Assembly: GCA_032249395.1 (NCBI GenBank)
Contig: JAVVFY010000007.1
Coordinates: forward strand, 1 to 39,809
DNA: 39,809 nucleotides
Source: Candidatus Aenigmatarchaeota archaeon
GTDB taxonomy: Archaea; Aenigmatarchaeota; Aenigmatarchaeia; CG10238-14; SpSt-28
Direction: 5' to 3'
In this document: positions 15,001 to 18,000 of the stretch, piece after piece
Position numbering within the stretch: position 1 is the first letter of the stretch
Layout of the letters: each line of letters begins with the position of its first letter
Made by a program: the position numbers

Positions 15001-18000
15001 ATTTGATTTTTGCCATCTCGTAGGTTCATCCAAGCTGCCTGTAGTACCGAAAATGAGTATAGGTTTTTCTCCGATTTTTAATTCTAAGTATTGATCGTCT
15101 AGAAATTTTATTCCCGTTATTTCATTCTTAATTTTTTCTCTGTAGTCTTCGAATTCTGTATTTCCGAACACAGCTATTATAGGAGAGGAAAATTTACCAA
15201 ATAATGAATTATATATTTTTCTGTATTCCTCTATTTCTTTTTCTAGAGAATCTCTTTCAACCATATCTCCAGCAAAAATTATTAGGTCAATTTCTTCGTT
15301 AATTTTTTCTAACTGTTTCACAAATTCAGAATAAAAAACTGGAGAGTGTATGTCGCTGCAAGCTAAAATCTTCATAACATAATTTTATTTTAACTAATTT
15401 TAAATTAAAATTGTTCAAAAAATACAGTTAATTAAAAAACTTTATTTTTACTCACATTTACTAACAGATAGTTTGTTCAAGAAGAAATCTTTTATTTTTC
15501 TTTGCCAAGAATCTTTCTTCAATACTTCTTCAAAGACCCACCTCTTAACTTTCTTATTATCTTCTAGAAGCTTTCTTGCAATATCTTTGACAGTTTCCCA
15601 GTGAAGTCTTAAATAATCTGGTGGTTTTTCTTCTGTTTGCATTATCTTTTCTATAAACAATCTTGTTTTCTTATCATGGGCATAACCGACACCAAAATCA
15701 AAGTTAACCCTTTTCTTAATTTCTTCAATTTCTTTATCTCTTTCAACTTTAGCAACTATTGAAGCTGCAGAAACTACAGGAATTTTTTCATCTAGATAAT
15801 TTTTAACAACGAGTTTTACATTTTTTTCATTTGGCAAGAATTGTTTAATCATTTTTTCAAACTTCTCACAATTTTGTTCTATCGAATCAACGTAGATCTT
15901 CTCAACATTATCTAACATATTAATTATATCTGCGATCTTCATCGCTTCTAGTTTATCGAGATTTATTCCTTTAGAATTAAAGTAGGAAATTTTGCAGGCA
16001 GAAACTTTAACTACAATAATATCTTTTGCTATATTTTCTATTTGCTTAAACAGCTCTTCCCTTTTCTTCGGATTAAGCTGTTTAGAATCTCTAACACCTA
16101 ATATTTTTAGTTTTTTAGAATCTCTACTACTTATAGATACTCCAGCTAATACCATTGGACCTATAACAGCTCCGCGGCCTGATTGACGCCTTCTTTTAAG
16201 AAGGTTTCGTCTATGCCGCAGATTATAGAGCTAATAATAGCACCCCCAACTTATTTATTAACACCCCCTATTCATTGAGGTTTTGTTGTGAAAGTTATTT
16301 ACTTTTTTGTTTAATCTAAATATAGCTAGGATTGAGTTAGAACTTTTCATAATTAATACATAAATTTTTCAATATAAAAGATTTTCAAAAGTTATATTCT
16401 TCTATTTTTGTCAAAATAATTATGAGGTTAGATGAAATAGAGAAATTTATTAGAAGTGGAAAGAATATTGAGGATATTTTCAGTCTATTTAATTGGAGGG
16501 AGTTTGAAGAAAAAGTTGAAGAAATATTTAGAATTCATAATTTCAAAACTATAAAAAACTTCAGGTTCAAGACTACAAAAAGGTTTGAAATAGACATATT
16601 AGCCGAAAAAAGAGACTTACTGTTTGTTGTAGATTGTAAACAATGGGGCAAAGGAAGAAATAAGACGAGTGCGTTGAAGAGAGCTGCTGATAAGAATTCC
16701 GAAAGAGCAGAAGAACTTAAAAACACTCTAATGGGAAGAAACAAGATAATTATTCCAATTATAATATCTCTTTTTGATGAAGGTATATACGAGCATCATG
16801 GAGTTTACATTGTTCCATTGTTTAAGTTGAATAATTTTCTATTGCAATTTTAGAACTAGAAGTAAAAAATAAAAAGATATAATTCAATTTTTTTAACGGT
16901 GAAGATATGACTGACTTCGATGTTAGAGTGGAGAACATAGTAGCATCCATTTCTCTTGGGACGAAAATTCCTTTAAACAATTTGCTTGATGAGGACACAG
17001 AATACGAACCAGAGCAATTCCCAGGGGTAGTTTTTAGGATGGAAGAACCAAAAGCAGCAGCTCTAATTTTTAGCTCAGGTAAGATAGTTTGTACAGGTTG
17101 TAGAAGCATGAGTGATTTAAAAAAAGCAATACAGCTAATTTTCAAAAAAATTAGGAAGGCAGGAGTTAGAATCCCACCCAATTATAAGGTTGAAATTCAA
17201 AATATAGTTGCATCTGCAAAATTCAAAGAAAGAGTAAATTTAGATAAAGTTGCATTCGAACTAGAAAACACAGAATACGAACCAGAGCAATTCCCAGGGG
17301 TAGTTTTTAGGATGGAGGAGCCTAAAGTTGCTTTTCTTTTCTTTAGTTCCGGAAAAATAGTTTGTACAGGAACAAGAAAAGTAGAAGAAATTAAAGATGC
17401 TATAGAGAAGGTTTACAAGAAATTAAAAGAAATAAAGGCGTTTGAAGAATCTTAATATACTTTTTTACATTTTTTTGTATCTTCATACTTTTTAATAAAA
17501 AACTTTAAATACTGCCTTAAATTTTCAACATGGAGAAAGAAAAGGTAGTAGAAAAATTTTTGTCATTTTTAGAAGATTATTATAAAGAAAAGATTTTAGT
17601 GGCGGTGACGGAAGGAAAGAGCTCAATAGAGATAGATTTTAGGGAAATCGAGAAATATGATGTTGAGGTAGCTGATTATATACTAGAAAATCCAGATGAG
17701 TTTCTAAAAGAAGTAGAAAGTTCCTTAGGAGAGTTAGATGCAACGCTTTTAGAAAAAAGGTTTCATTTGAGATTTTTTAATTTACCTGAAGACAGAAACA
17801 TAAGAATAAGAAATTTGAGAGCCGAACACGTCGGAAAGTTAATAGTTGTTGATGGTATAGTTAAGAGAGCTAGCGAAGTTAGACCCGAGGTTTATGAAAT
17901 AACTTTTCAATGTCCGTCTTGTGGGGAATTAATTAACATTAAACAAGAAGCTAGAGTTTTGAAAGCACCAGAGGTTTGTCCGAATTGTGGAAACAAAAAG

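Follow-up and report, generated by a model that had tools for sequence, protein, structure and literature searches.

Does an archaeon that keeps TBP, TFB and its RNA polymerase start transcription without the general factor TFE? The question is raised by a tbp gene in the window, the whole stretch of 39,809 nucleotides that was analysed, from a Candidatus Aenigmatarchaeota archaeon (GCA_032249395.1, 89.5% complete; here G000). Passages in PMC7704642 and PMC5861453 treat TFE-alpha/TFIIE-alpha as a general factor that is conserved and essential in archaea and eukaryotes, and in the parts of the literature cited here Thermoplasmata are the one exception named. The survey's finding at this locus was a second archaeal lineage without TFE. 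The following features of the window were considered:

16907..17455, + strand: TATA-binding protein (TBP), 182 aa; PF00352, PRK00394
16847..16906, + strand: region 5' of tbp, with putative elements read from the printed sequence
10165..10374, - strand: Rpo10-like RNA polymerase subunit, 69 aa; short-motif match only
32986..34089, - strand: tyrosyl-tRNA synthetase-like gene, named from sequence

The open reading frame named as TBP by the survey contains two TBP repeats (Pfam scan, PF00352, E 3.9e-65; PRK00394, E 1.2e-66), and the name stands. Upstream of it lie an A-rich run and a putative TATA-like octamer at about 16877-16884, together with a putative Shine-Dalgarno-like pentamer 9 to 5 bases 5' of the ATG. 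The Rpo10-like subunit was named from a short motif that we take to be that of Rpo10. G000 also encodes TFB, Rpo7, Spt4, Spt5 and FttA (Pfam), and Rpo4 was found by a separate search, so that TBP, TFB and the polymerase stalk are retained as the survey had stated. The stalk (Rpo4/7), TBP, TFB and Spt4/5 are the set that Thermoplasmata combine with a stalk-bearing polymerase and no recognisable TFE.

Absence of TFE from Aenigmatarchaeota and two sister phyla

TIGR00373 matched nothing in G000 at E<=10, and PF02002 gave five partial matches (best 6.9e-5), none above its cut-off. When all 5,698 six-frame stretches were searched by hmmsearch with its filters off, only partial winged-helix or zinc-finger matches came back (best E 3.6e-5, winged helix only), and no frame matched both the winged helix and the zinc ribbon of TFE. 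Separate profiles for the two domains matched different G000 proteins; unlike archaeal TFE-alpha, no single protein of this genome combines winged helix, linker and zinc ribbon, in line with the survey. Family scans assigned the winged-helix candidates to ArsR, Lrp, TrmB, DUF7343 and generic HTH proteins. In a spike-in control, with a profile from which the nine closest divergent sequences were omitted, 14/14 added TFEs were recovered at E<=8.2e-19 versus 4.8e-4 for the best G000 frame, a margin of 14 orders of magnitude. Because about 10% of G000 is unassembled, absence cannot be proved from this genome alone, and the phylum counts carry the claim.

Within the family, TIGR00373 matched four of 19 genomes at E<=0.01. 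Three of these matches span model positions 10-76 only, and the strong one (E 2.3e-45) lies in G014, a bin 58% complete. This protein is identical to TFE-named proteins of Ca. Methanomethylicaceae/Verstraetearchaeota, and the contig that carries it has little in common with G000 (MBF1, 42% identity); contig C4 of the same bin carries ribosomal proteins, CDC48 and SMC 62-84% identical to those of G000. The G014 gene is foreign, and native TFE is therefore present in 0/19 family genomes.

A profile of 145 TFE sequences (A3) was run over 371 Aenigmatarchaeota genomes, scoring no more than nine candidates per genome; the 3.6e-5 match in G000 was found by the local search only. Full-length TFE was present in 5/371 genomes (E<=7.5e-27), followed, among the matches listed, by a gap to 1.8e-8 with all further matches partial, and TIGR00373 recovered the same five. 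One of the five is the G014 contaminant and four are divergent (G042, G043, G144 and G263), which leaves native full-length TFE in 4/371 genomes, compared with 328/371 for the control Rpo4, 79/80 for Rpo7 and 79/80 for Rpo1'. At >=90% completeness the counts were 3/98 for native TFE and 95/98 for Rpo4. The rarity reported by the survey is thus confirmed, and its caveat about incomplete bins does not overturn it. The single-contig genomes G243, G248, G270 and G299 all have Rpo4 and lack full-length TFE. G384 holds a degenerate TFE-like frame of 278 aa (E 1.4e-7; sole NCBIfam match TIGR00373, E 0.0035).

TFE was found in 0/42 genomes of a 42-species sister phylum (Rpo4 35/42) and in 0/61 sampled of 70 genomes of the salt-adapted phylum holding Asbonarchaeaceae, which we read as Nanohalarchaeota. 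Among the outgroups, TFE was present in 119/121 sampled Nanobdellota, 2/2 Micrarchaeota and 1/1 Altiarchaeales, and in 26/151 sampled Thermoplasmatota. The absence is real in about 99% of Aenigmatarchaeota and in the two sister phyla. Zinc-ribbon-only proteins of about 400 aa were considered as TFE fusions and rejected; those examined are a release factor, endonuclease-like proteins and others (named from sequence).

The main rival is a TFE trimmed or diverged past recognition, for instance a winged-helix-only derivative that docks on the clamp and aids opening without a zinc ribbon; we consider it unlikely. Its best candidate is P0189 of G243 (123 aa), which hhalign pairs with the winged helix and wing of TFE (probability 93%, E 2.6e-7, only slightly above an Lrs14-type control), matches PF02002 at E 4.5e-4 and has a precomputed match to PF19479, presumably DUF6015. 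Proteins related to C2:12856-13707, a winged-helix protein of G000, occur in four or more other genomes, and the wing holds an invariant G-W. However, P0189 found only itself among 5.8 billion clusters, a metagenome scan with it gave one short spurious match, and its single-sequence model (pLDDT 49.8) was too poor for a fold search. It has no relative in G000 (best E 1.1), nor does the corresponding position next to histone and eIF5A hold one. None of the 742 G000 proteins of <=460 aa reached its score of 41.1 against the TFE winged-helix profile, and the best, C2:12856-13707 with 37.6, scored below an unrelated Lrs14-type regulator (39.6). MarR/ArsR folds headed the matches to the model of C2:12856-13707 (Z 10.2, rmsd 2.2, 67 aligned), and a pre-initiation-complex chain came at rank 40 (Z 8.4), with many ties. 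Short PF02002 matches in the halophile phylum (17/70 genomes at E<=1e-4, 16 above the Pfam cut-off) were also rejected as TFE and are Lrs14/Sta1-like, a verdict that rests on 10/18 matches: seven regulators of about 110-130 aa without zinc ribbon, two ATPase-linked proteins and one Lrp-like protein. Two of the regulators were scanned and matched Sta1/Lrs14 at E 1e-17 to 1e-20. Judged by sequence, a winged-helix-only TFE-like protein may thus occur in at least one relative (G243), and not in G000.

A probable single ancient loss and probably late TFE-like genes

In an Rpo1' tree (FastTree, 95 sequences, 816 columns), the three TFE-less phyla formed one clade (support 0.909) with Woesearchaeota as its sister (0.997), a placement given by one gene, one Woesearchaeota sequence and FastTree supports. 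Thermoplasmatota occupied a separate branch, and the loss in Thermoplasmata is therefore independent. The survey's second lineage holds against the groups tested, with Huberarchaeota, Undinarchaeota and Iainarchaeota outside the search, and the lineage counted as first is itself mixed, TFE being present in part of the sampled Thermoplasmatota. The survey understated the range: the second lineage is a clade of three phyla rather than a family. A single loss of the gene tfe (TFE-alpha) probably took place in the ancestor shared by Aenigmatarchaeota, the Asbonarchaeaceae-bearing phylum and the 42-species phylum. Since equally small Nanobdellota genomes keep TFE, the loss cannot be put down to genome reduction alone. 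A literature search that lacked one key review found no published account of TFE loss in these phyla; a passage in PMC7289017 states that TFE-beta is absent from DPANN.

The four divergent proteins cover the full model with winged helix and zinc ribbon (A3, E 4.6e-40 to 7.5e-27), and their best NCBIfam match is NF004910, below its cut-off. The predicted fold of the G043 protein also resembles TFE (Atlas features 0.95, TM 0.69). By sequence and predicted fold they are members of archaeal TFE-alpha (TIGR00373, NF004910, PF02002; PDB 6kf4, 6pln, 1q1h; passages in PMC7704642 and PMC3223566), a family defined also by binding to clamp and stalk and by stimulation of open-complex formation. They carry 90-230 extra N-terminal residues that are mutually unrelated, score far under the family cut-offs and are sporadically distributed. 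In G042 and G043 the gene sits in antisense orientation between tyrRS and serRS, two genes that adjoin each other, without TFE, in G041 of the same genus and in G040 of the sister genus (98% complete). The flanking gene is the orthologue of 32986..34089 (45% identity, L015/L017), near which the TFE profile found no TFE in any frame of G000. The site in G144 is empty in 5/5 congeners. Three of the four genes (G042, G043, G144) are therefore isolated inserts at sites empty in relatives. The three insert lineages fall apart in the TFE tree, and the few TFE-like genes of the clade are probably late, fast-evolving inserts. Two single-protein scans, able to detect close relatives only, gave no convincing viral relative. 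One ancestral loss, initiation by a minimal factor set and late TFE-like inserts together form a reasonably probable account.

Alternatively, the Aenigmatarchaeota ancestor kept TFE, which was then lost many times, and the four copies are vertical relics. The contigs of all four carry native-looking neighbours; long branches make their positions in the TFE tree unreliable; G263, alone in its family, offers no close relative for an empty-site comparison; and the loss of a conserved clamp tryptophan common to G263, G042 and G043 could reflect long co-residence. Nevertheless, this reading is distinctly unlikely, as TFE would have to disappear many times in parallel, among other places in both sister phyla and inside genera g41 and g60, while insert positions differ among carriers, the N-terminal extensions are unrelated, and the tryptophan is also absent in TFE-less G243 and kept in TFE-bearing G144.

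We know of no imported basal transcription factor, and it is highly improbable that host cells supply these archaea with TFE protein. DPANN archaea are commonly predicted to live as symbionts (passages in PMC8204110), and the G014 bin also contains DNA of an archaeon that has TFE, which shows co-occurrence only; however, Nanobdellota, reduced to the same degree, have retained a TFE of their own (119/121), and the relaxed Rpo7 lysine described below speaks against TFE still docking. That incomplete genomes, poor binning or an insensitive search merely simulate the absence is hardly credible and largely refuted by the recovery of Rpo4, Rpo7 and Rpo1' in the same collection, of TFE in comparable small genomes with the same profile, and of the spike-ins, even though G000 is incomplete, nine or fewer candidates per genome were scored, and the sister-phylum counts come without completeness figures and in one phylum without an Rpo4 control.

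Probable initiation without TFE and its possible footprints

From the absence of the gene, we infer that the clade initiates transcription without TFE. TBP on the TATA box and TFB on the BRE would recruit the stalk-bearing polymerase, whose clamp would open without a dedicated opener; the DNA would melt at an A+T-rich stretch that begins with a preferred adenine some 10 bases ahead of the start, and Spt4/5 would load on the clamp afterwards with no TFE competing. It is likely that TBP, TFB and polymerase open promoters unaided, and very probable that TFE has no functional stand-in. G000 encodes the three components of the minimal in vitro system, in which, according to passages in PMC3223566, TBP, TFB and RNAP initiate and TFE adds about 5-fold. 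In that system Spt4/5 represses initiation >10-fold without TFE, whereas the clade keeps Spt4/5 and has no TFE; furthermore, Haloferax does not allow deletion of tfeA (PMC5861453). Both observations count against the model.

TFE docks on the clamp tip and the stalk, where Rpo7 K152 forms a salt bridge to it (passages in PMC7704642). This residue, singled out from the literature before the columns were compared, is lysine in 19/20 Nanobdellota versus 9/37 TFE-less clade genomes, the largest drop among 182 columns, and adjoins a gappy loop. G000 itself retains K152 and the clamp glutamine, and decay of the Rpo7 hydrophobic patch was not seen, F95/F98/L107 being kept across the clade. At the clamp tip, F replaces L in 68/69, 6/6 and 5/5 sequences of the three phyla, versus L in 20/21 other archaea. 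In Thermoplasmatota, position 152 is N in 12/12 genomes, with or without TFE, and the clamp tip is canonical in 15/15; neither shift is therefore needed for life without TFE. A B'-A' polymerase fusion was rejected as compensation (the fusion is missing from most TFE-less genomes and present in TFE-bearing G144), and loss of the stalk was rejected too (Rpo4 328/371, Rpo7 79/80).

Profiles of predicted promoters, placed relative to start codons, showed an adenine peak at -10 in G000 (0.75 vs 0.40, n=164, P 8e-19), at -9 in G243 (0.67 vs 0.19, n=27, P 6e-7) and at -11 in G545 (n=14, P 0.03). No peak as clear was seen in three Nanobdellota genomes (P 1.0, 0.59 and 0.04), and none in pooled Nanohalarchaeota loci (n=12, P 1.0); TATA-anchored tests were significant in G000 and G243 only. 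TFE-bearing M. jannaschii has conserved -11/-10 promoter positions (PMC2699501) and the melted region of P. furiosus is A+T-rich (PMC6640164), so the signal may have been lost in Nanobdellota rather than gained in the clade. The Rpo7 lysine, clamp tip and promoter adenine are suggestive footprints of TFE loss, each with counter-examples. That promoter DNA and clamp tip compensate for TFE is conceivable but somewhat doubtful. Rather unlikely is the fuller version, in which the ancestor shifted promoter opening into DNA and polymerase, the -10 adenine being read by TFB or polymerase and the clamp tip averting the Spt4/5 block; a fixed -10 adenine would then seed the melting and determine the start site, a role much like that of the bacterial sigma-70 -10 element. 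If true, this would be a distinct, ancient archaeal initiation mode in several hundred species.

Relation to other archaea

Passages in PMC7289017 and PMC4495717 describe Thermoplasmata as lacking both TFE-alpha and TFE-beta, and in the passage cited Blombach et al. 2015 proposed, rather than showed, factor-independent clamp opening for them. The present loss differs in spanning three phyla of small-genome archaea, in its altered clamp tip and Rpo7 loop (both canonical in Thermoplasmatota), and in the rarity of TFE (4/371 Aenigmatarchaeota against 26/151 sampled Thermoplasmatota).

As a second independent loss beside a TFE-keeping sister group, the clade offers a clean comparison and a natural test case for the role of TFE in the cell beyond TBP, TFB and polymerase, and for how the Spt4/5 block is lifted without it. 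Some nanohaloarchaea grow in co-culture. For reconstituted systems, Rpo7 152, the clamp tip and the promoter position are named targets, and TFE absence is a gene-content character supporting the grouping of the three phyla. Nanobdellota (Nanoarchaeum equitans, Woesearchaeota) differ in having TFE (119/121), a conserved Rpo7 K152 and no clear adenine peak near -10 (three genomes). They resemble the clade in small genomes and symbiotic habit (passages in PMC8204694 and PMC8204110), and in having, ahead of many start codons, a TATA box at a distance of about 28-30 bases.

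Absence of TFE from the genome and its rarity in the phylum

The survey's finding had placed TBP in the window, reported TFB and the polymerase stalk as present, and held TFE to be missing from the genome and its family and rare in the phylum. The genome was assigned to Aenigmatarchaeota from the source name given for a relative's protein and from the named records with which it grouped. In the genome (G000; 752,806 bases in 25 contigs, of which the window is C7; completeness 89.5%, contamination 0.1%), Pfam confirmed TFB, Rpo7, Spt4, Spt5, FttA and the large polymerase subunits, and a separate search found Rpo4. 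The retained machinery was therefore as described, including TBP:

Window 16907-17455 (+): TBP gene, an open reading frame with its identity confirmed

TIGR00373 gave no match in G000 at E ≤ 10, and PF02002 gave five matches, all partial and all under the cut-off. A full TFE was found in one of the 19 family genomes (G014). Its sequence was identical to proteins named TFE from Ca. Methanomethylicaceae/Verstraetearchaeota, and its contig was unlike G000, whereas contig C4 of the same bin was 62-84% identical (ribosomal proteins, CDC48, SMC). We rejected this copy as foreign, which leaves the reported family-wide absence standing. On the contaminant contig, trm56 adjoins tfe (L010:13152-13694). 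One protein query and one motif search showed no Trm56-like gene in G000, and the two genes may have been lost together.

Across 371 Aenigmatarchaeota genomes, TIGR00373 matched 38 at E ≤ 0.001, with one match above the cut-off and four more spanning most of the model. Relatives gathered from these four near-full matches numbered 773 at E ≤ 0.001, of which the best 150 were used, and 145 of 151 proteins (six fragments or long fusions being excluded) were aligned into a TFE profile, A3. With at most nine candidates scored per genome, A3 gave some match at E ≤ 0.001 in 232 of the 371. Full-length matches numbered five (G014, G043, G042, G144 and G263; E 7.6e-57 to 7.5e-27), and the next, among the best 150 of 376 matches, were no better than 1.8e-8 and all partial. 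Native TFE was thus present in 4 of 371 genomes (3/98 at ≥90% completeness), compared with 328 of 371 (95/98) for the Rpo4 control, confirming its rarity in the phylum. Because the genome search scores so few candidates, we also ran A3 unfiltered against the complete six-frame translation of G000 (5,698 stretches), where the best E was 3.6e-5. After removal of the nine closest divergent sequences, the profile recovered 14 of 14 spiked-in TFEs at E ≤ 8.2e-19, and the best G000 frame reached 4.8e-4. The margin against an overlooked full-length TFE in G000 is wide, though a more divergent copy may be present.

Native copies and a possible winged-helix remnant

The TFEs of G042, G043, G144 and G263 are real TFE-alpha homologues on contigs with native neighbours, and their N-terminal extensions showed no mutual relationship. 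G042 and G043 carry the gene in antisense orientation between tyrRS and serRS, which adjoin directly in G041, of the same genus, and in G040, a 98% complete genome of the sister genus. The G144 copy comes after a methyltransferase gene, at a site without TFE in 5/5 congeners tested. This comparison covered G042/G043 and G144, as G263 had no relative to compare. The three insert lineages were ungrouped in a TFE tree with long branches and weak resolution, and viral scans found no donor. Overall, the four copies have the appearance of late insertions. In family f9, the TFE-like inserts (L015 from G043, L017 from G042) carry 130-230 additional N-terminal residues, and a metagenomic clade of similar long-form TFE exists.

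The main rival to true loss is that the winged-helix part of TFE persists without the zinc ribbon. Genome G243 encodes a candidate protein, which aligns with the winged helix and wing of TFE:

L398:13630-13998 (-): 123-aa protein of G243, similar to the winged helix of TFE but lacking a zinc ribbon; precomputed PF19479

However, no relative of this protein was found except itself, none was detectable in G000 or at the matching site, and profile comparison of 742 G000 proteins revealed none at its level. The best G000 candidate (C2:12856-13707) scored under an Lrs14-type control and probably has a generic winged-helix fold. The gene in G243 lies directly upstream of a histone-like gene and eIF5A.

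Breadth and age of the loss

The absence itself stood, but its assignment to the family was too narrow; it extends to a clade of three phyla. In one sister phylum, TFE was not found in 42/42 genomes at E ≤ 1e-7 (Rpo4 control, 35/42), one of which, G384, holds a degenerate frame that narrowly missed this threshold (E 1.4e-7):

L386:2163-2996 (-), also L276: 278-aa degenerate TFE-like frame of G384, with winged helix, linker, first cysteine and decayed ribbon

In the Asbonarchaeaceae-holding phylum, whose acidic Rpo1' (17-19% D+E) suggests Nanohalarchaeota, A3 found no TFE in 61 genomes sampled of 70, the controls there being Rpo7 (6/6) and Rpo1' (5/5) only, without Rpo4. Since acid-shifted proteins could escape A3, PF02002 was run on all 70 genomes and matched 17 at E ≤ 1e-4 (best 2.1e-7; 16 above the Pfam cut-off). 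Ten matches were inspected and rejected as TFE: seven were short regulators without zinc ribbon, nearest Lrs14/Sta1, and three were other proteins.

In the phylum that includes Woesearchaeota, 119 of the 121 genomes sampled had TFE, as did two Micrarchaeota genomes and one Altiarchaeales genome. Several Nanobdellota and one Micrarchaeia genome gave two or three matches, an opposite trend in the sister group. A FastTree phylogeny of Rpo1' (95 sequences over 816 columns, with a Verstraetearchaeota sequence as root) paired the two sister phyla (0.976) and joined this pair to Aenigmatarchaeota (0.909), with a lone Woesearchaeota sequence as sister to the three (0.997). The loss probably predates the phylum Aenigmatarchaeota. 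Thermoplasmata share the TFE-less state, but Thermoplasmatota were placed elsewhere on the tree, and we conclude that the state of the clade is new and independent of theirs. TFE was found in 26 of 151 sampled Thermoplasmatota, including two in tandem in G624, and the group known to lack TFE therefore makes up only part of that phylum. Locus L258 (G541), titled Aenigmatarchaeota, has an Rpo1' within Thermoplasmatota and is mislabelled or misbinned.

In their accessible text, PMC7289017 names Thermoplasmata alone as lacking both TFE subunits, PMC8204110 states that TFE is found in DPANN (with one Woesearchaeota row in its supplement), and PMC8204694 lists TFE for N. equitans. The searchable text and supplements of PMC8407114, on Aenigmarchaeota, and PMC7414124 do not mention the loss, nor do the accessible parts of PMC13257274 and PMC8553660 address it. 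No published report was found in the openly searchable literature; the gap may already be shown in Blombach et al. 2016, in subscription papers or in the large marker tables that accompany Dombrowski et al. 2020.

Polymerase, promoters and proposed initiation without TFE

According to the available text of PMC7704642, Thermococcus TFE docks its winged helix on the tip of the clamp coiled coil, and its zinc ribbon binds Rpo7 via patch 95/98/107, loop 150-157 and a K152 salt bridge. With Rpo7 numbering taken from the PDB alignment, the patch was intact across the clade. Position 152 was lysine in 19/20 Nanobdellota versus 9/37 TFE-less clade genomes (the four insert carriers and G384 excluded), the largest drop of 182 columns (mean identities 0.54 and 0.48, respectively). 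The loop window spanned 8-10 residues in Aenigmatarchaeota; most Nanobdellota had 10, and Archaeoglobus had 12. Against a footprint at K152, the lysine is kept in G000, the column adjoins a gap, and asparagine occurs in 12/12 Thermoplasmatota with or without TFE.

At the clamp tip, phenylalanine replaced leucine in 68/69, 6/6 and 5/5 sequences of the three clade phyla, and glutamine was mostly changed to D or E. The tip was Q-L in 20/21 other archaea (TFE status checked for a minority) and 15/15 Thermoplasmatota, and E-I/V in 5/6 Nanobdellota. By our own mapping, this glutamine appears to be Pyrococcus Q262, which contacts Spt5 according to the available text of bioRxiv 2024.01.05.574147. Because the change is one evolutionary event, it cannot show cause. 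Past the tip, a nearly invariant tryptophan is A or H in G263 (L140), G043 (L142), G042 (L385) and G243 (L156), the last of which has the winged-helix-only protein; it is kept in the insert carrier G144 and is I in the TFE-less G356 and G369.

As far as the accessible sources describe, TBP, TFB and polymerase suffice for initiation in vitro, TFE raises it about five-fold, and without TFE it is repressed more than ten-fold by Spt4/5 (PMC3223566); Haloferax tfeA could not be deleted (PMC5861453); and spontaneous clamp opening with easily melted promoters was proposed for Thermoplasmata (PMC4495717). By analogy, the clade most likely runs a minimal TBP-TFB-polymerase system, in which the clamp would open spontaneously without TFE and promoters would melt easily. 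For a means of escape from the Spt4/5 block, the altered clamp tip is the obvious candidate.

Upstream of 340 G000 genes, we detected an A-rich BRE (-33 to -31) followed by a TATA box (-28 to -22); adenine then peaks at -10 relative to the ATG, a spacing consistent with leaderless transcripts for many genes. Within TATA-bearing subsets, this peak was significant in G000 (0.75 vs 0.40, n=164, P 8e-19), G243 (at -9; 0.67 vs 0.19, n=27, P 6e-7), G545 (at -11; 0.57 vs 0.23, n=14, P 0.03) and pooled other Aenigmatarchaeota loci (0.60 vs 0.39, n=60, P 0.004), with no significant peak in pooled halophile loci (n=12, P 1.0). Three TFE-bearing Nanobdellota (160 kb each) gave P 1.0, 0.59 and 0.04. A+T of -12 to -1 minus the spacer was +0.09-0.14 in three TFE-less genomes, compared with -0.03 to 0.02 in three TFE-bearing ones. 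A TATA-box-anchored test left significance in G000 and G243 only. Similar elements are described in the available text on TFE-bearing archaea: M. jannaschii and haloarchaea have conserved -11/-10 positions (PMC2699501), and in P. furiosus the melted region is rich in A+T (PMC6640164). The clade therefore either kept or sharpened an element apparently missing from the TFE-bearing sister group, and we hypothesize that it compensates for the loss of TFE.

Subunits B' and A' of G000 form a single 1,429-aa frame (C3:69146-73435; L100:3146-7435). Fused forms occurred in 19 genomes including G000 (14 B'-A', 5 whole B-A'), spread over nine families, and in 3/80 named loci, every one within Aenigmatarchaeota; the fusion is not tied to TFE. 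Rpo1' frames of 1,140-1,200 codons with no B' ahead (L178 of G226, L285 of G394, L387 of G447, and L247) are possibly A'-A'' fusions. In the window, the 1,036-aa MCM helicase gene (17530-20640) appears from its sequence to be interrupted by an intein that includes an endonuclease domain. An EF-2-like frame of 1,226 aa (C3:76251-79931) and a CDC48-like frame of 1,257 codons (C1:24642-28415) are far longer than usual, probably through inteins. A release-factor-like frame of 539 codons (C1:130591-132210) aligned in two pieces to 400-aa relatives, which implies that about 130 residues are inserted within it.
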